From a virus, in IMG/VR virus record IMGVR_UViG_3300025133_000055, positions 1-64,000 of that record: 64,000 bases of DNA; one strand, 5' to 3'. A program made the translations under genes and the position numbers. Of this stretch, positions 473 to 51,112 are shown one piece after another. Each line of letters begins with the position of its first letter. The stretch's first letter is position 1. The notes under the pieces were generated by a model. It searched no databases and had not been told where the DNA came from. It was given only the letters and a program-made list of their open reading frames with translations.

Positions 473-3364
473 ATGTCTGACGAACCTGACAGATTTAAGA
501 ATTTAAAAGAAATCCCTGGCTTCGATGAAAAACTGAAGACCGCCAACAACCCGGAATACGGCGCTGGCTTTGATGGTGATAAGACCATAGAGGTGTACAA
601 TGAAGGGGAGAAATTTAAAAAAGCTCTTAGGTCGGAGAAAGCCGGATATGAGGATCTAAATGCTCTTTACGATGAGAATCTCTCTGGCGACCGCGCGATA
701 TTTGACGCAGCAATTGAAGAAACATACGGTAAAGGATCAGCACCAGTTGTCCGACAACTTATCGAGGCTCAGGTAGGCACCGTCAAAGACTCCCACCTCT
801 ATAAGAGAAAGATTGATAATTTAGATCATCAGGTTTTATCCCGCGACGTAGCAAACTATTACCATATCCAGAAAAGAGCAGCCGTAGAAACTATAGTCGC
901 TAAATCGGCGTCCGAATTGAAGTCCGCTGGCATCACAGGCGACGCAAAACAACAACAATTAGACGCGGCCCGGGCGGCAGCGGAACAATTTGTGAGGGAC
1001 GATGAAGACGGCATTCTCACCGATGATGAGGTGGAAGATTTTGGAGATAAATTAAAAGAGTTTACTGCCCAAGAGCTTAAAAAAGTTGGAAAGTTTGATC
1101 ATCAAAACTATCTTCTCGGGCATGTAGGGGAGTTGGCGAAACTGTCTAAAGACCGCCGTTCTGTCGTTAACGCCTCCATACCTGTCGGAGTCCGCGCACC
1201 CGGACTTGGCGGTATTCGACAAAATGATGATAGGATTTTATCCCTATACAGCACTTCGACAAACCCCCTTAGTAAATTAAGAAAAAAAGAGAAAGGATAT
1301 GGTATTCTTTCGCTCCCGACAGAAAAACTATCTCAATTGGTGCCATCTATAAGACTTTTTAAACTATACACCACTACAGCAACCAAGAAAGGATCAAAAA
1401 AGAAAAGTTCAACTACTCATGAAGTGGAAATTCCGTTTCCCACAACAAGCTTAATATATGCAAATAGTGGTAAAAATTTTGGTGCATCTGGCGGCATCAC
1501 GGCAGGAAGCCAAGATCCTAGTAATTTTTTTAAAAATAGAGACGGATTTGGAATAAAATCTTTTGATTGGACGTTAGCCGGTAAAACGGAGGTCACCGCA
1601 AAGACAGATATAACGGCCAATTTAAATCTTTATTTCCAGGACTTCGGACAGTTAACAACTCCTAGAAAAAACAAAAAAGGTCAGGTCTTCAGATATCTTG
1701 ACCTTATTTTAGAGCAGGACGAAGCCCTGAGGCAGGGAATACAATATTTAAAAATAGTAGTGGGTTGGGCGGTTCCCTTACATCAGGGCCTTGGGTCGTT
1801 TACTTCGGAAGAATTAGACATAATAAGAGAAAATAGTATATCCCTAAAAATGACAACCACGGATTATTCTATTGTTTTTAATGATTCTGGAAACGGAACT
1901 TTCGAACTAGGCATTGAATATCGGTCTTGGGAAGGAGAATTTACGACAGATAACCTTGTTAATATTTTATTGCCATCCAAGGAAAATTGCACAATACTGG
2001 GACGACTTTCCAAAACAATAAGCGATGCGGAAAAGAATAATTTAAAAAAAGTAGGAGGAAAAGATGTCACAGAGTTACAAACAGAAAGAAGTAATTTGGA
2101 AACTTCTCTGGTTCCCGAAACACATACGAAGATAATGACCCTCTTAACAGAAAGTGAATCCATATATCATATGTCCCTTCCCCTCAAAGCGGTTTTTGAT
2201 TTCCAAGGAGTAGATGCAGCGGCCTCCGAGGGTACTCTATCGCAACTTCCCGATAGTCAAAGTGGAGAGGCAGTCAACTCGCTAGTTACAAAAATAGCCG
2301 CAGGAGAAGAAAAGCCATCAGGTTCGGAGGCAGACACAGAAGGAAATGTAGACATCTATTATACTTTTCTGGGAGATATAATCCAGGCAGCTATGGTAAA
2401 CTCTTTGGATGCGGACAAACTCAATCTTTTAAACAAAGTCGATGCCTCACAAGCTAATTTTATCAAAGTTTTAACCACAGATGTAAGATTTGGAAACGAT
2501 ATTGTGAATATTGCCGATATTCCCATAGATATTAAATTTTTTGCCTCATTCTTCTTTGAAAGAATCACAAATAAGAAAGAGGGCCAAAAAAGTCTTTCGA
2601 GCTTCATAGGTGATATGTTGGCTTATATGGTGGAAAACAGGATTGGAGATTTCTTCAATAAGCAGGCGGGAGATAATTACGAATATAAAACTTCGTGGTT
2701 TAATTTTGAAAATAAGGTCGTAGGCATACAAGATGCAAAAACAATAGTTCTCAAGGAGGGAATAAAATATTCTTATTTGGCTGTATATCCACAACCGGTG
2801 GCAGGTTTCGCCGGCTCATCTCTTATAATAAAAAAGGGAAAATACGCCAAGGCCAAAAAGACAGATCAAACACAAGATGGTATATATCATTTTATTTTGG
2901 GAGCCGCTGACTCAATCGTAAAGAGCGCCTCTTTTGAAAAAACCGATCTGAAATTCGAGAAAGAGCGAAGACTGGTCGAGGGGTCTTCGCCGTTTGCTAT
3001 CCTGAGGAATGTGTTTATGGTTAATTTGAGATTATATGGAAACACTCTTTTTTGGCCTGGAAGTTTGGTATTTATTAATCCCTCCCAAGCTGTGGGTGAC
3101 GGTGGACATCCATGGATCCCAGGTTCAATATTTAATATAATGGGTTTCGGCGGATACCATCAAGTTATAAGTGTTAAAAACACTATAAGTGATAATACAT
3201 TTGAAACTGCTTTGGAGACTAAATTTATAAATTCGGGAAACCCGCCGGTTAAAGGGTCGGGGTCGAAGGGTAAGACTACACAGGGCGGACTTGTCCGTGG
3301 GCAGAGCACCCCAGATGAAGTAGGGATAAAGGCTGTTCGAACTGAAGGGGGTGTCAAAAAGTGA
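473..3364 (+). CDS. large virion protein, probable baseplate hub (gp27/GpD-like C-terminus)
   Basis: 963 aa; C-terminal LYGNTLFWPGSLVFI...GGYHQVISVKNTI...FETALE resembles hub proteins; next to the LysM wedge gene. Confidence 0.55.
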   Translation: MSDEPDRFKNLKEIPGFDEKLKTANNPEYGAGFDGDKTIEVYNEGEKFKKALRSEKAGYEDLNALYDENLSGDRAIFDAAIEETYGKGSAPVVRQLIEAQVGTVKDSHLYKRKIDNLDHQVLSRDVANYYHIQKRAAVETIVAKSASELKSAGITGDAKQQQLDAARAAAEQFVRDDEDGILTDDEVEDFGDKLKEFTAQELKKVGKFDHQNYLLGHVGELAKLSKDRRSVVNASIPVGVRAPGLGGIRQNDDRILSLYSTSTNPLSKLRKKEKGYGILSLPTEKLSQLVPSIRLFKLYTTTATKKGSKKKSSTTHEVEIPFPTTSLIYANSGKNFGASGGITAGSQDPSNFFKNRDGFGIKSFDWTLAGKTEVTAKTDITANLNLYFQDFGQLTTPRKNKKGQVFRYLDLILEQDEALRQGIQYLKIVVGWAVPLHQGLGSFTSEELDIIRENSISLKMTTTDYSIVFNDSGNGTFELGIEYRSWEGEFTTDNLVNILLPSKENCTILGRLSKTISDAEKNNLKKVGGKDVTELQTERSNLETSLVPETHTKIMTLLTESESIYHMSLPLKAVFDFQGVDAAASEGTLSQLPDSQSGEAVNSLVTKIAAGEEKPSGSEADTEGNVDIYYTFLGDIIQAAMVNSLDADKLNLLNKVDASQANFIKVLTTDVRFGNDIVNIADIPIDIKFFASFFFERITNKKEGQKSLSSFIGDMLAYMVENRIGDFFNKQAGDNYEYKTSWFNFENKVVGIQDAKTIVLKEGIKYSYLAVYPQPVAGFAGSSLIIKKGKYAKAKKTDQTQDGIYHFILGAADSIVKSASFEKTDLKFEKERRLVEGSSPFAILRNVFMVNLRLYGNTLFWPGSLVFINPSQAVGDGGHPWIPGSIFNIMGFGGYHQVISVKNTISDNTFETALETKFINSGNPPVKGSGSKGKTTQGGLVRGQSTPDEVGIKAVRTEGGVKK

Positions 3365-3392: not shown

Positions 3393-4676
3393 ATGGCTAT
3401 AAAATATAAAGCGACAAATTCAACAAATTTATTATCTTTATTCGTAGAAAGAATATTGTATGACGCAATTTTTATATCACCCGAAAATGCAGATCAACTT
3501 TTTGTTGTACCTGGAGGAAGGCAAAAAGCTTCCGGTGAGGCTATTGGCGTCAAAAATTATTGGGCATTCGAAAACATCTTATATGGTAAAGTAAATAAAA
3601 GCCTGATATGTGTAGCCCCCATAAAAGAAATATTAAAACCTATTGATAGCGATGGAGAGACATTTTATGTCTTTTCAGAAGTGGCCGAGTGTTATTCAAC
3701 TTTTAGGGATTTTTTTAACTTGAGGGCAAGATATGGTAATCTGGCCGAAGACAATTATTTGCAGTCTCCTAAAATTTTTAAGGCGTTCGAAGATGCAGAT
3801 ATAAATTATAATGTTTATTTGACTAAAAGGGTGTCCAAGTTTAATAAAAATATCTTTTTAGAACAACAGAACAATAAAATAAAAAATATAAAAGATTATT
3901 CAAAAAAATTTATAAATGATTTTATGAATAACAAGGGAGATAATATATTAACGAGAACTGCCTATCGCTTATCAAATAAAGTTTCCTCGATTTCTTCGGG
4001 TCTTTCTATAGAAATAGCAGATTTAGACCCATCAAGTAATGCAGATAAACAATTGTTCCTCGATTCTCCAAATTTTCAATTTTATAGACAATCAGCAATA
4101 AATGCCGGATTCCTTATTGATAAAAATATTCCTTGGAAATTAAATTTTGATATGTCATCTCCAACAAATAAAGATAAAATACGACTTGCAGGCCCCGGCA
4201 TTGATGCAGCCACAAGTTATTTGACTGAAAATTTTGTTAGAGTTTATCGCGAAGACATCGAGTATTTACTTTCCATGATCGTAATGGGGTATAATTCTTT
4301 GGTTAATGATGCTCCATTTTATAGAGAGGGTCTTTGTGTTTTCTCACGGGAAAAAGTCGATAAAGAAAAGGTATTCGAAGAAACCTTAAAAAGAAATTAT
4401 TGGATTAAAAAGTATATTTTAATAAGAAATAAAGAAACCGGACATCCGTATAGAGACACCGAGATTGATAAAATAATTTTTAATGCTATCGATCTACCAG
4501 AAGGTCGGGGGATAGATTATATTGATAAGAAATTTAGATTGCCATTCATATATGAGGGATCGCTTACCTATGAGCTTTTCAGACAAAATTTTACACAAAA
4601 TACGAAATTTCCCCTTGACAATTTCTCTGAATATGTTAAAATAGTAATACAAAGAGCGATTAACGAAATATATTGA
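3393..4676 (+). CDS. hypothetical protein
   Basis: 427-aa ORF, no motif recognised. Confidence 0.6.
   Translation: MAIKYKATNSTNLLSLFVERILYDAIFISPENADQLFVVPGGRQKASGEAIGVKNYWAFENILYGKVNKSLICVAPIKEILKPIDSDGETFYVFSEVAECYSTFRDFFNLRARYGNLAEDNYLQSPKIFKAFEDADINYNVYLTKRVSKFNKNIFLEQQNNKIKNIKDYSKKFINDFMNNKGDNILTRTAYRLSNKVSSISSGLSIEIADLDPSSNADKQLFLDSPNFQFYRQSAINAGFLIDKNIPWKLNFDMSSPTNKDKIRLAGPGIDAATSYLTENFVRVYREDIEYLLSMIVMGYNSLVNDAPFYREGLCVFSREKVDKEKVFEETLKRNYWIKKYILIRNKETGHPYRDTEIDKIIFNAIDLPEGRGIDYIDKKFRLPFIYEGSLTYELFRQNFTQNTKFPLDNFSEYVKIVIQRAINEIY
4615..4642 (+). promoter_or_regulatory. sigma70-type promoter inside the 3' end of the upstream gene
   Basis: TTGACA-N16-TAAAAT with extended -10 TG. Confidence 0.55.
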
Positions 4677-4682
4677 GGGATC

Positions 4683-5864
4683 ATGCTTTTTCAGACACTT
4701 GACGACAAAAAAGATTGCGTCGGAATTTACTATGATGAACTTCTTTTCAACCAAGAATTGCCAGATGACCTGACTCACACATGGTCATATTCGGGATTTC
4801 TCAAAGGGAAGGAGATTGAGTATGCAAAACTCTATTGTGGAGGAAAAACCCTCGATATGGTATGTCCAGAGGCCCTGAAAGACCGCTACAAGAGATCCAG
4901 TGACAAACTCAGGGCTTTCGTCAAATCTTTTATGACGGCTCGTGTATCGCTCGATGAGAACTGTTTTTTTGATTTAGTACCTCAAAGATTCCTTGAGGAG
5001 TTCTGTCAAGTCAAAAATTATATTTGTGAGCACGTTTTTGAGAATTATGAAAGGCCAAAGAATTATGATTATCTTGTTTCTTTGACTGAGATAATCGAAG
5101 ACATAAAATATAGAAGTTTAAATTTGAATCCCAAGAATCTTTCCATGTTTAAGGCAGATCATAGAAAATTTTCACAAAATTTAAATCAGATTGAACATTC
5201 GTGCAAATTTAATATTCACGGAACAAAGACGGGGCGCCTAACAACAGTGCCGAAGAGCTTTCCAATTCTAACTTTAAAGAAAGAGCTTCGCTGTGTGGTC
5301 AAACCTCATAATGATTATTTTGTTGAGCTTGATTTTAACGCTGCGGAGTTACGAACTTTGCTTGCTTTGCAGGGGAAGTCTCAGCCGATCGGCGATATAC
5401 ACGAATGGAACATTAAGAATATATTTCAAGACTCAATAACGAGGGACGAGGCCAAAAAAAGAATTTTCGCATGGTTATATAATCCCGAGAGCGAGGACCA
5501 CCGGTGCGAGCATACATATAACAGGGAGTCGGTGGTACAAAAGTACTTCACACAGGGCCAAGTGAAAACCTTTTGGGACAAGGTGATCCCGTCAGAGGAG
5601 AGAACCGCATTGAATTACATTATTCAATCAACATGTGCCGAAAATGTTCTGAGACAAATGATTAAAGTATCTAATTACCTAAAAGGATGTAAATCATATG
5701 TTGCTTTCCCGATCCATGATTCTATTGTACTTGACCTTTCTAAAGAAGACAAAGAAAAATTGCCAGAAATCATAGATATTTTTTCTAATACGGCCCTTGG
5801 TAAATTTATGGTGAATGTCAGAGTAGGTCAAAATTTTGGCCAACTAGAGAAACTGGGGGTATAA
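4683..5864 (+). CDS. truncated family A DNA polymerase (polymerase domain only)
   Basis: GTKTGRLT, motif A ELDFNAAELR, motif B RDEAKKRIFAWLY, IIQSTCA, motif C IHDS. Confidence 0.8.
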   Translation: MLFQTLDDKKDCVGIYYDELLFNQELPDDLTHTWSYSGFLKGKEIEYAKLYCGGKTLDMVCPEALKDRYKRSSDKLRAFVKSFMTARVSLDENCFFDLVPQRFLEEFCQVKNYICEHVFENYERPKNYDYLVSLTEIIEDIKYRSLNLNPKNLSMFKADHRKFSQNLNQIEHSCKFNIHGTKTGRLTTVPKSFPILTLKKELRCVVKPHNDYFVELDFNAAELRTLLALQGKSQPIGDIHEWNIKNIFQDSITRDEAKKRIFAWLYNPESEDHRCEHTYNRESVVQKYFTQGQVKTFWDKVIPSEERTALNYIIQSTCAENVLRQMIKVSNYLKGCKSYVAFPIHDSIVLDLSKEDKEKLPEIIDIFSNTALGKFMVNVRVGQNFGQLEKLGV

Positions 5865-46321: not shown

Positions 46322-46376
46322 TTGACATTCTCTTGACAACTTTTTTATTGACTCCAACTGAAAAACCCTGTATAAT
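46322..46376 (+). promoter_or_regulatory. triple-TTGACA early promoter 3
   Basis: TTGACA-N5-TTGACA-N9-TTGACT-N17-TATAAT. Confidence 0.85.
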
Positions 46377-46405
46377 GTATATACATTCAACGGAGATCCT
46401 CTCAC

Positions 46406-47238: not shown

Positions 47239-47260
47239 AAACACAGATTTAAACTTGAAT

Positions 47261-47476
47261 ATGGCCAAGTGGGGCCAATTAACAAAAAACCCAGCCCGTT
47301 GCTGTATAGGGCTGGCTCTCGATTCTAAGGGTTGAAGGTTGCTTATCGTGGATGCGGTACATAAAGGGCTTTCTATCTCCATTATCGAGGGGGCTACCAT
47401 GAGAGTGTCAACAACAGATTTATGCAGATAGGAAGTCGGCTATCCGAGAAAAACGACACCGGCCCCACTTGGTCAT
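47261..47476 (+). ncRNA. candidate structured non-coding RNA
   Basis: 16-bp closing stem enclosing three nested stems; no credible ORF. Confidence 0.55.
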
Positions 47477-47511
47477 CATCTATTTACCAGTTTGAAACTT
47501 TATAAAATCTC

Positions 47512-47566
47512 TTGACATTTTCTTTACAATTTAGTTATTGACTTGAACCGAAATATCCTGTATAAT
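47512..47566 (+). promoter_or_regulatory. triple-TTGACA early promoter 4
   Basis: TTGACA-N5-TTTACA-N9-TTGACT-N17-TATAAT. Confidence 0.8.
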
Positions 47567-47592
47567 ATAGGTACAAATTAGGAGTTCCCAGT

Positions 47593-48369
47593 ATGTCTAT
47601 TCGCCGTCCAAATTCTGCCCATAAAAGAACCGTCCGTTGCTCATTTTGCTATGAGAGAGGACATAACAAGTCATCCTGTCCAAAATACGCCGCGAAAATA
47701 GAGGATTTTCGTACTAAATACGGTGATGACCATTATGATGTCCGCCGCTTTGACGCGAAGAAAGCCAGAAGACACGCGAAGGCCAAGGATCGCAAGTGCT
47801 CATATTGCGACGGGAAAGGCCACAATCGCGCGACCTGTCCTGAACTACTCAGCCACATTCGCGAAAGTCAGGCTAAAACCGCCTCTTTCCGCAAGTCGAT
47901 GCTCGCGCGAATGAAGGCGCTGGGAATTGGTGTTGGGACTGTTTTGTCAACGGATAGGTTTATGGGTCGCACCAATAAGGATGATTATGAATCTGCGCGC
48001 TATCGCATCCCGCACGTTATTACACTTATAAACTGGGATAATATCAATCACTTTAATCGAGAATACTCTTATTTTGATGGCAATGCCCCGTGGGTTTCCA
48101 AGCCTTTATGCGAGATCTCGGCACGTTGGAATAGTGAACCGGGCTGGCCCTGGGACGCCGAAATTGTGAAGTTACTTATGGGAGAAGCAAATGCGACAGA
48201 ATGGATTGAAGGAACCCACTGGCGATTCGATCGAAGGATGCAATATTTTTGTGATGTAGAATGCCCGGTACCAACCCCACAGCCGCCCCACAAGTGGCTT
48301 CTCGGGGGAGATCTAAAGTATTGGAAAGGGATTTATAAGAAAACAAAATCCTATTCAGGGGCTTTGTAA
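47593..48369 (+). CDS. double zinc-knuckle (CCHC) protein
   Basis: CSFCYERGHNKSSC and CSYCDGKGHNRATC (CX2CX4HX4C). Confidence 0.8.
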   Translation: MSIRRPNSAHKRTVRCSFCYERGHNKSSCPKYAAKIEDFRTKYGDDHYDVRRFDAKKARRHAKAKDRKCSYCDGKGHNRATCPELLSHIRESQAKTASFRKSMLARMKALGIGVGTVLSTDRFMGRTNKDDYESARYRIPHVITLINWDNINHFNREYSYFDGNAPWVSKPLCEISARWNSEPGWPWDAEIVKLLMGEANATEWIEGTHWRFDRRMQYFCDVECPVPTPQPPHKWLLGGDLKYWKGIYKKTKSYSGAL

Positions 48370-48383
48370 GCCTCTTTTCACCC

Positions 48384-48484: not shown

Positions 48485-49639
48485 ATGTCCGTCGCCATCA
48501 CATTCTCAAACCTCTCTTCAATGATCCCGGCCCTTTTATCGGGTGACGAAAACAACCTTTATTCCGTTCTTATCCGTGGTCGCCACGGTATCGGCAAATC
48601 GTGGATTGCATACCAGACCGCCGCTGGCCTGACGTGGGATAAGAAGGCCAAAACTACGCGCCCGATTAAGAAGGGCGAAACTCCTCTTCCGGTAGAAGAG
48701 CAGCGCGCATCACAGATGACTGAGGGCGATCTGCTGGGTTTGCCGAGTCCAGAGATGGTTAAGATCAATGGCGAGCTTGCGGCCAACCTGCGCCCATTTG
48801 CTTGGCTTATAAGGGCATGCACGGAGCCGGTTGTGCTTTTCCTCGATGAGATCGATCGAGGCACCACCGAGGTACGTCAGGGATTTTTCCAGCTTGGCGA
48901 TAGCCGTCAAATCAACGGCTGGAAATTGCACCCTGGAACCGTTGTTTTCGGTGCAGTCAACGGCGGCGTTCACGCAGCCCAGTATCAGGTCGCCGATATG
49001 GATCCCGCAGAACTTGATCGCTGGGTTACTTTCGATGTCGAACCTTCTATTGAAGATTGGCTTAACTGGGGCAAAACCGAGGTTCATCCTATCGTATGGG
49101 ACTTTATTAATCAGAATCACGATCATCTGGAGCACAAAGGCGAATTTGAGCCGGGTACCGTATACCCATCACGCCGATCGTGGCACCGCTTGAGTAACAC
49201 ACTCGCTAAGGTCGATATGCTCGACGACGAAAACGCCGATTTAGGCTTGCTTTTCAACCTGAGTCATGGATTTGTCGGCTTTGAAGCTGCGGTTTGCTTC
49301 CGCGACTTCGTTGAGAATTTCGAGCGTCAAGTAACCGTTGAGGATATCTTAGATGATGGCAAGATCGAGAAAACCAAAGATTTTGGCCTAGTTGATCATG
49401 TCGCTTTAATTGAGAAAATGGCAGCACGCGCCGTATTCGCTGCTAAAATTGAGGATCCCCGAATGATCAATTTAGTCGCCTACTTTGATGCACTCCCGGC
49501 TGAGGCTCGAATGAAGTTATTCACAACTTTAACTGAGGACAATAACCAGATCTCAGCGGACAACGGCTCCACATTCCACAGAGAATTAGCTAGACAGGGC
49601 AAGGTTGGAGCATTTATTAAGCTTCTCGGTGGGAAGTAA
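48485..49639 (+). CDS. MoxR-like AAA+ ATPase
   Basis: GRHGIGKS, DLLGLP, LFLDEIDR, DPAELDRW, PSRRSW. Confidence 0.85.
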   Translation: MSVAITFSNLSSMIPALLSGDENNLYSVLIRGRHGIGKSWIAYQTAAGLTWDKKAKTTRPIKKGETPLPVEEQRASQMTEGDLLGLPSPEMVKINGELAANLRPFAWLIRACTEPVVLFLDEIDRGTTEVRQGFFQLGDSRQINGWKLHPGTVVFGAVNGGVHAAQYQVADMDPAELDRWVTFDVEPSIEDWLNWGKTEVHPIVWDFINQNHDHLEHKGEFEPGTVYPSRRSWHRLSNTLAKVDMLDDENADLGLLFNLSHGFVGFEAAVCFRDFVENFERQVTVEDILDDGKIEKTKDFGLVDHVALIEKMAARAVFAAKIEDPRMINLVAYFDALPAEARMKLFTTLTEDNNQISADNGSTFHRELARQGKVGAFIKLLGGK

Positions 49640-49649
49640 AACACAGGTT

Positions 49650-49673
49650 GAAGGGGGCTTTTTCGCCCCCTTC
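49650..49673 (+). terminator. hairpin after the AAA gene
   Basis: gaagggggc-N6-gcccccttc 9-bp stem; weak U tract. Confidence 0.45.
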
Positions 49674-49679
49674 GGCCTC

Positions 49680-49734
49680 TTGACATTCTTTTGACAATTG
49701 TTTTATAGACAAGTGCACTAAGATCGTGTATAAT
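49680..49734 (+). promoter_or_regulatory. triple-TTGACA early promoter 6
   Basis: TTGACA-N5-TTGACA-N9-TAGACA-N17-TATAAT. Confidence 0.8.
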
Positions 49735-49759
49735 ATATATATAAATCGGAGCTTCCTAC

Positions 49760-51112
49760 ATGACAACTATCGCCACAAAACCCGCTACTGAGGTTCTACC
49801 TTTTAATCTCGATGAACACATTGTTGATCTTTTGAGAGATGAACCCTTTTTTGCCGCTTTATCCCGTCGTATGGATAAGGTACCTTCAACCCGGATCCCT
49901 ACCGCTGGCGTGTGCTTAAATGAGGAACGATGCCGGTTTGAACTGGTTTATAACCCGATCTTCATGGGATCGATCCTTGCACGCGATAGGAAATTCGTTA
50001 AGGGTATTTTGCTCCATGAATTTTATCACATTGTGCTTTTGCATGTCACTACTCGCTTGCCAGATGGTAAAATGTCTAAAAAGTGGAATATTGCAACCGA
50101 TTTAGCGATTAATAGCGATCTTTCAATCTTTGATCACGCCGAGACATCTACAGGCTGGAAAATGGTTAGTACAATATTGCCCGAAGAAGCACTGTTTCCG
50201 ACCGTAGGCCCATTTGCAGAGTTTCCACCGGGATTATCGGCCGAGGAGTATCTTGAAATGCTGCCCGAGGGCGACGACGAAGGCGACGAAGGCGACGAAG
50301 GCGGCGAAGGCGAAGGCTCCGGCGCTGGGAAGGGAAAAGGGCAGAAAGAAAGTGATGAATCCGACGAAGGTGAGGAGGGAAGTGAGGGATCTGGCGATAG
50401 TGACGGTCCCTCCTCACCTTCCGAGGGTCACGGTGACCATTCCAATTGGGGCGACTCTGACGGTACAGATGAAAAACGTAAGATTGCGGAAGAGCGCCTA
50501 AAGGAAAATATTAAAGAGTCTTTCGTTGAGTCGCAATCTAAGGGGTTCGGATCTGTATCGGCTGGCATGCGCCGACAAATTAAAGAAGCGATCACACCTA
50601 AAGTCAATTGGCGTTCTATCCTTCGTTCATTCGTCAAGGCTTCTCAAAGAGCGGATAGAACCTCGACAATTAAGAAATTAAATCGCCGCTATGCCTATAT
50701 CCATCCGGGCCGCAAAGCAAAGCGCCAAGCGAAAATAGCGGTTTCAATTGATCAATCGGGCAGTGTGTCCGATCAAATGCTTGTCGCATTTTACGCCGAG
50801 CTTGAAAAGCTTTCTCAGCTTGCTGAATTCACGGTAATCCCCTTTGATACCGAGGTTGCCGAGGATCATGTTCACGTCTGGAAAAAAGGTGAGCGTCATG
50901 AGAAGGCCCGTTATAGATACGGCGGAACCTGCTTTAATTGCTGCACCAAATGGGTCAACGAACGACAGTTCGATGGTCACATTGTCCTGACTGATATGGA
51001 GGCTCCTAAGCCGGTTCCGAGCAAGTCTCAGCGTATGTGGATGACAACCAAGCGATGCGCCGAGCACCCTTATTTCAAAACCAACGAAAGAGTGATCGCA
51101 ATCGATGATTAA
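49760..51112 (+). CDS. HEXXH metallopeptidase-like + VWA protein (DUF2201 type)
   Basis: LLHEFYH, WNIATDLAIN, acidic linker, DQSGS, GGTCF, LTD. Confidence 0.85.
   Translation: MTTIATKPATEVLPFNLDEHIVDLLRDEPFFAALSRRMDKVPSTRIPTAGVCLNEERCRFELVYNPIFMGSILARDRKFVKGILLHEFYHIVLLHVTTRLPDGKMSKKWNIATDLAINSDLSIFDHAETSTGWKMVSTILPEEALFPTVGPFAEFPPGLSAEEYLEMLPEGDDEGDEGDEGGEGEGSGAGKGKGQKESDESDEGEEGSEGSGDSDGPSSPSEGHGDHSNWGDSDGTDEKRKIAEERLKENIKESFVESQSKGFGSVSAGMRRQIKEAITPKVNWRSILRSFVKASQRADRTSTIKKLNRRYAYIHPGRKAKRQAKIAVSIDQSGSVSDQMLVAFYAELEKLSQLAEFTVIPFDTEVAEDHVHVWKKGERHEKARYRYGGTCFNCCTKWVNERQFDGHIVLTDMEAPKPVPSKSQRMWMTTKRCAEHPYFKTNERVIAIDD
50267..50317 (+). repeat. 9-bp tandem repeat (gaaggcgac) in the acidic linker
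   Basis: Encodes EGDDEGDEGDEGGEGEG. Confidence 0.7.

Follow-up and report, generated by a model that had tools for sequence, protein, structure and literature searches.

The question raised by this locus is what lies in a long gap without a credible open reading frame (ORF) in the early region of a marine phage. The window, which is the whole stretch of DNA analysed here, comprises the first 64 kb of an 87-kb IMG/VR record representing a ~48% complete phage, and nearly all long ORFs of the record lie on its + strand. A preliminary description had placed a structured, multi-branch RNA in a gap of about 270 nt. The element carries no coding signature, and the gap measures 354 nt (47239-47592), running from the stop codon of the 88-aa ORF p88 (47236-38) to the start of a zinc-knuckle gene at 47593; its part from 47511 to 47569 is a promoter cassette, not RNA structure. 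We conclude that the + strand of 47251-47507 encodes a pseudoknotted RNA belonging to an uncatalogued family whose members measure ~215-255 nt. Taken as a whole, this RNA has a long closing stem, four inner hairpins (P2-P5) and one knot, and comprises ~230 bases here. The features are as follows.

46322..46380 (+): early promoter cassette, recognised from its cassette sequence
47251..47261 (+): P0 5' arm, outer imperfect helix pairing with 47481-47493, from the minimum free energy (MFE) fold and the inverted repeat
47261..47276 (+): P1 5' arm, 16-bp closing helix with partner arm 47461..47476
47277..47290 (+): J1/2, A-rich variable linker whose A-run is not conserved in the alignment
47291..47315 (+): P2 hairpin, 7 bp (arms 47291-97/47309-15) with an 11-nt loop
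47302..47308 (+): PK1 5' strand, CUGUAUA in the P2 loop, paired with UAUGCAG at 47421-47427 in J4/5
47316..47391 (+): P3 domain, made of P3 (47317-23/47384-90), P3a (47329-31/47378-80), P3b (47334-39/47368-73) and P3c (47344-49/47354-59)
~47391..47409 (+): P4, variable hairpin taken from per-sequence folds, with gtgtc as its 3' arm
47410..47434 (+): J4/5, highly conserved joining strand with invariant alignment columns, holding the PK1 3' strand (47421-27) and UAGGA (47429-33)
47431-33 with 47443-45 (+): PK2, tentative 3-bp contact of GGA with UCC in the P5 loop
47435..47457 (+): P5 hairpin GUCG/CGAC (arms 47435-38/47454-57), conserved loop ..AUCCGAG.AAA
47461..47476 (+): P1 3' arm, in which relatives have two transitions that create G.U pairs only when read as + strand
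47477..47507 (+): 3' tail holding the P0 3' arm (47481-93), conserved along with the RNA in L002, where the flank beyond differs
47511..47569 (+): next early promoter cassette, with three -35-like boxes and TATAAT, outside the RNA
47593..48369 (+): zinc-knuckle gene (258 aa, two CCHC knuckles), a syntenic neighbour of the RNA whose product is a candidate partner

The + strand of the element folds with an MFE of -82.9 kcal/mol (z = -3.86), and none of 200 dinucleotide shuffles was as good, whereas the - strand fold has a z of -2.01. The + strand thus folds better than both its shuffled controls and the opposite strand. For comparative evidence, we fetched 160 loci from marine metagenomes and IMG/VR through homologues of the zinc-knuckle protein. 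Blastn and nhmmer located the element in ~50 of these loci, giving 29 distinct versions that are 70-99% identical. Pair counts were made on a structure-blind MAFFT alignment of 28 distinct rows and covered 34 pairs (P2, PK1, P3, P3a, P3b and P5), with partners slid by 1-3 columns as the control. Across the 34 pairs, 94.1% of cells were paired, compared with 40-49% for slid partners, and the covariation score over the same pairs and rows was 0.29 against 0.04-0.08. Compensatory changes on both sides occurred in 13 of the 34 pairs, and covariation proved abundant across the 29 independent versions.

At the level of single helices, P2, P3, P3a, P3b and P5 were 91-100% paired in the 28 distinct relatives. 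P2 was paired in all of them, with compensatory changes in three of its seven pairs, and P5 was 98% paired, with one pair appearing as U:A, G:C and C:G. For PK1, pairing reached 84.9% against 13-53% for slid partners, and four pairs showed compensatory changes, including the exchanges G:C to A:U and U:A to C:G. The pseudoknot between the P2 loop and J4/5 is therefore supported by the alignment independently of the other helices. The PK2 contact GGA:UCC, which we propose tentatively, was 100% paired with one double change in the family, and a sister element described below adds another double change.

These counts also correct the helix map. The 16-bp P1 with its one G.U pair (47261-76/47461-76), the P2 hairpin (47291-97/47309-15) and a P3 with inner stem had all been drawn from the window alone, and each was recovered in place: position 47316 or 47317 to 47323 pairs with 47384 to 47390 or 47391, and the inner helices are present. 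Two further stems were not. The proposed P4 gtgtc/gacac (47405-09/47455-59) was only 54% paired in relatives and the stem gatag/ctatc inside it (47427-31/47440-44) 69%, neither above shuffles; gacac overlaps the 3' arm of P5, and ctatc sits in the P5 loop. The hairpin that we now call P4 is, like P3c, a variable one whose stem sequences differ among most members; it is weak in the window, L029 and L050 and strong in relatives.

The strand follows from the wobble pairs. Since G.U cells exceed A.C cells by 110 to 23, as the preliminary description had anticipated from the window, we assign the RNA to the + strand. Canonical pairing likewise stood at 94.1% when the alignment was read as + strand and at 84.2% when read as - strand.

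P1 covaries from one subgroup to another. It is present in every subgroup with sequences unrelated between subgroups, and comparable outer P0 pairing was found in all of them. Together, P0 and P1 form a duplex of ~27 bp in the window and of ~25-30 bp in every subgroup despite the unrelated sequence. Within a member, the 5' and 3' flanks at P1 pair at -20 to -41 kcal/mol, whereas a 5' flank matched with the 3' flanks of other members gives medians of -14 to -22 kcal/mol. Some 60 loop or unpaired positions of the RNA are invariant or nearly so, among them the junction nucleotides, and the internal loops of the P3 domain are nearly invariant. Six 'mini' versions (L038, L041, L072 and L074-76) carry a plain hairpin instead of the ornate P3 domain, which is thus peripheral and dispensable.

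The RNA is far better conserved than the neighbouring protein genes: it retains 87% nucleotide identity where the zinc-knuckle protein has 50%, and 75% where the protein has 45%. On two IMG/VR contigs the element is 93% identical while both flanks are wholly different. A core covariance model (R1) detected a single full copy per genome in three related genomes, which are 92-100% complete, 168-193 kb long and encode a T4-type gp23 capsid protein. The carriers are about thirty uncultured marine phages, of which the three near-complete relatives are T4-type. Applied to 95 more distant zinc-knuckle loci, the R1 model returned no further members. Among GenBank phages, we found no similar DNA by blastn and no match to the zinc-knuckle protein by tblastn, and no cultured carrier is known. 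An exact search of IMG/VR with the P1 16-mer gave 24 matches, 22 of them chance matches in sequence coding for 'MAKWG', and a corrected motif scan of IMG/VR returned only the contigs already known plus chance matches. An earlier, badly designed motif pattern gave four matches in bacterial contigs, all by chance in coding sequence, and is weak evidence of absence from bacterial genomes. A search for antisense targets in the 87-kb record yielded chance-level 11-13-mers only.

We then compared the element with catalogued RNAs. Rfam 15 gave no match at the gathering threshold over the whole window, only a chance HIV_GSL3 match (E 5.5) at the RNA itself, and no match to the RNA in eight divergent members; ARAGORN reported no tRNA or tmRNA gene in the window. 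We found no description of this RNA in the literature, although it may be among the 10,006 unnamed candidate viral RNAs of Fremin et al. 2023 (PMC10690425). A MITE or other mobile element was excluded because the RNA is single-copy wherever whole genomes are available and its synteny is fixed, and its ends show no target duplication. A retron msr-msd was rejected because the 87-kb record encodes no reverse transcriptase (no RVT_1 match); the neighbours are p196, p88, the zinc-knuckle gene and MoxR. The proposal of a novel multi-branch structured RNA on the + strand has therefore passed the shuffle, covariation, Rfam and copy-number tests with a corrected helix map: P1, P2, P3, the strand, the lack of a known match and the zinc knuckles next door all stood, and the original P4 and its gatag/ctatc stem fell.

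The genomic context suggests how the RNA would be made. Seven early promoter cassettes occur in the window (43150, 44425, 46322, 47512, 48384, 49680 and 52679), marked by a pair of additional phased TTGACA-like boxes that lie 5' of the -35 box, and canonical terminator hairpins precede only some of the cassettes (48340-48378 and 49640-49676). The usual gene order around the RNA is p196, small ORFs, RNA, promoter cassette, small ORFs, zinc-knuckle gene and MoxR ATPase. Conservation of the RNA begins ~12-25 nt past the upstream stop codon, and the genes upstream are unrelated (p88 here, p196 in L002). Since this stop codon adjoins P0, there is no room for a dedicated promoter, and the 46322 cassette most likely drives a unit p196 - p88 - RNA. 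In L002, L050 and L053, a small ORF with a ribosome-binding site stands directly 3' of the RNA with no promoter between them, so the polymerase must read through. From its position after an upstream stop codon and before either a cassette or a promoter-less ORF, we infer that the RNA belongs to an early transcript, either as its tail or as a part between cistrons.

The ORF inserted between RNA and cassette starts with MKE(I/V)YLVTYEH (L002:2640-2880, L050 and L053) and occurs in three different RNA subgroups, which illustrates how genes come and go by cassette at the RNA-promoter junction. Further downstream, the window encodes a MoxR-type AAA ATPase followed by a DUF2201 metallopeptidase-like/VWA protein (48485-51112), a pair resembling the CobS/CobT-like pair of marine T4-type phages. 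The MoxR-type ATPase is 80-91% identical across RNA-bearing loci, far above its neighbours.

The reading that we favour, with middling confidence, is that of a stable knotted RNA that is released or delimited at P0/P1 and shows its conserved core to a partner. Having no promoter of its own, it would form the tail of the early transcript started at the 46322 cassette, and the closing duplex P0+P1 would set its ends. These ends could arise through double-strand-specific cleavage of the RNase III type, or through partial termination in members with a U-rich tail. P0+P1 offers a mostly regular duplex of at least 20 bp and about two turns, as RNase III requires, and the closing duplex is kept in length (two and a half turns) but not in sequence, which is what double-strand-specific processing needs. 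The compact knotted core would then last as a stable RNA, whose invariant unpaired nucleotides and P5 module may be shown early in infection to a partner, which would be either a protein or a small ligand.

One neighbour to consider as this partner is the zinc-knuckle protein. As had been noted from the sequence, it carries two CCHC zinc knuckles, each of the form CX2CX4HX4C. Its gene is present in all RNA-bearing loci, but the loci were found through that very gene, and more distant homologues at 40-44% identity keep the order p196 - Zn - MoxR with no detectable RNA (including in a 114-kb record). For both reasons, a partnership is possible but unsupported. The AlphaFold model of the protein is confident (pLDDT 89). 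With this model, Foldseek returned nothing at E <= 0.001, and VIA-align gave only weak matches to KOW/Tudor-like barrels (Z <= 4), the C-terminal domain having no convincing solved fold; an Atlas search with the protein returned unnamed viral clusters only. One lineage (L047 / L049) has two diverged zinc-knuckle paralogues, 48% and 42% identical to the window protein (matches at 2501-3247 and 4525-5298), with p196 and the RNA between them.

The P5 module, UAGGA/AUCCGAG, is found again in another non-coding element that these phages carry (L201:1461-1662 on the - strand, L202:1371-1572 and L203:1371-1572; also L213, L233, L236 and L239). This element consists of a hairpin GGUUC-AUUGUCUCUAAC-GAACC and a covarying helix, then UAGGA with a P5-type hairpin (loop ..AUCCGAG.UAA), and it ends in a U-run followed by a conserved 84-aa ORF. 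One copy occurs in each of the three near-complete genomes with the main RNA; neither the 87-kb fragment studied here nor the two incomplete records without the main RNA contain it. The module shows the compensatory changes GGA:UCC to GAA:UUC and to AGA:UCU; L233 has UAAGA/AUCUAAG, in which both sides have changed and the GGA:UCC contact is preserved. In L216, L228 and L235, which are other marine phage contigs, the same GGUUC..UGUCUCUAAC..GAACC hairpin, around the match to TGTCTCTAACGAACC, heads a different downstream structure, so it may be a widespread leader motif in its own right.

The main rival to a stable, partner-binding RNA is a purely cis-acting 3'-end element, an ornate stem-loop of the PeSL type that would end or pause early transcription and, as a cap, shield the upstream message from 3' exonucleases. 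We consider it doubtful but worth serious weight, as the position of the RNA, where other cassettes carry a plain terminator hairpin, suits a role in cis alone just as well. In the slot that the RNA occupies before the 47511 cassette, the 48384 and 49680 cassettes carry ordinary GC-rich hairpins with U-runs, and in most relatives the promoter cassette begins 5-35 nt 3' of the closing stem. A U-rich run also directly follows the P1 3' arm in L045, L047, L059 and L060, and PeSLs are defined as composite terminator/promoter motifs (PMC4122927). However, a cap or terminator needs a hairpin only, whereas ~60 near-invariant unpaired or loop positions and a pseudoknot are kept here; a cap would need neither an invariant junction nor a knot nor the P5 module. 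Moreover, a terminator scan at the RNA found no terminator-like site, groups B-D have no U-tract, the promoter-less ORFs of L002, L050 and L053 call for read-through, and PeSLs are multi-copy whereas this RNA is single-copy.

It is rather improbable, in our view, that the RNA represents a new functional class made in bulk at the start of infection, whether as a sponge or decoy, its knotted five-way junction capturing a host defence signal or a defence protein, or as a new self-processing ribozyme that would divide early transcripts into units. If it did, the UAGGA/AUCCGAG module, common to it and a second phage RNA, would be a recognition handle. Few structured RNA classes are both large and well supported, and among them several have proved to be ribozymes, riboswitches or RNP scaffolds.

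A ligand-binding aptamer, acting as a riboswitch-like sensor that would tune read-through at P1 or as a strongly expressed early 'sponge' for a host metabolite or signalling nucleotide, is quite improbable. By analogy, the closing helix, the junction and the knotted hairpin loop recall the architecture of riboswitches such as SAM-I, and invariant junction nucleotides with a dispensable peripheral domain would suit an aptamer. But Rfam riboswitches gave no match even with E values of 5-10 allowed, there was no sign of an expression platform, a full and strong promoter cassette separates the RNA from the next gene in most members, and the neighbouring genes give no clue to a ligand. Very improbable is a self-cleaving or otherwise catalytic RNA that would make the transcript end between early units. 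The intercistronic site, the knotted conserved core, the size typical of a mid-sized ribozyme and conservation beyond structural need would suit it, but no catalogued ribozyme class matches, no conserved candidate cleavage site was singled out, and the long closing duplex points to protein nucleases.

Scarcely credible is a reading other than a + strand RNA, namely a DNA element such as a MITE, an origin or a recombination site, a minus-strand small RNA ending at P2 and a T-run, or a minus-strand gene (47400-47188, 70 aa): the minus strand of the window does show P2 followed by TTTTTTGTT, there is a 16-bp terminal inverted repeat, and most members have a stop-free minus frame of 45-84 codons, but relatives do not keep the A/T-run beside P2, which rules P2 out as a minus-strand terminator, the G.U asymmetry favours the + strand, the element is single-copy in fixed synteny with neither target duplication nor reverse transcriptase, and the minus frame has frame-breaking indels and no codon-position periodicity (entropies 0.66, 0.59 and 0.67).

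Strong covariation, a pseudoknot, a dispensable domain and slow evolution amid hypervariable early genes argue for a function on which a widespread group of ocean phages relies while taking over the host. A complex RNA can evidently occupy the 'stem-loop' slot of T4-type promoter-terminator cassettes, and a defined construct of 215-255 nt is now at hand for probing, structure determination and partner searches.

Among known systems, the closest in position are the PeSL cassettes (Arbiol 2010, PMC2839356; Comeau 2014, PMC4122927), which share the slot before a sigma-70-type early promoter. As in those cassettes, the folded element lies directly upstream of an early promoter and ends an early gene unit, in the plastic early region of T4-type phages where small ORFs are gained and lost on either side. 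PeSL stem-loops, however, are short, simple terminator hairpins with many copies per genome. The RNA is no such hairpin but a single-copy, knotted, multi-helix element of 215-255 nt. It has unpaired nucleotides that do not vary, and in some relatives transcription passes through it.

Phage T4 itself has rnaC and rnaD, small stable non-coding RNAs of unassigned function that are processed from a longer transcript (AF158101 annotation), as we propose here; they lie inside a tRNA cluster, however, and rnaC has a tRNA-like T arm. Run with filters off on T4 66-76 kb, which contains rnaC and rnaD, the R1 model scored 5 bits at best (E ~1). GOLLD, ROOL and raiA are likewise conserved, pseudoknotted RNAs of unassigned role that are often carried by phages. 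The present RNA has no Rfam match, is much smaller than GOLLD and ROOL, and belongs to marine T4-type phages, where it probably forms the tail of an early transcript.

In architecture, the nearest likeness is to SAM-I-type riboswitch aptamers, which have a closing P1, a four-way junction and a P2 loop pseudoknotted to a junction strand. The RNA shares the closing P1, a multi-helix junction and a P2 loop knotted to a junction strand. It differs in having a five-way junction, no expression platform and no similarity in sequence or by covariance model, and in its likely place, which is the tail of a transcript and not a 5' leader.

In its predicted processing, the RNA resembles the RNase III sites of the early polycistronic mRNA of phage T7, which are simple irregular hairpins. 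Both place a duplex of at least 20 bp between the cistrons of an early phage transcript, and after cleavage at P0/P1, as at the T7 sites, the upstream message would end in a stem that protects its 3' end. Unlike the T7 sites, the duplex here closes a large conserved core, so that the predicted cleavage would free a separate RNA.
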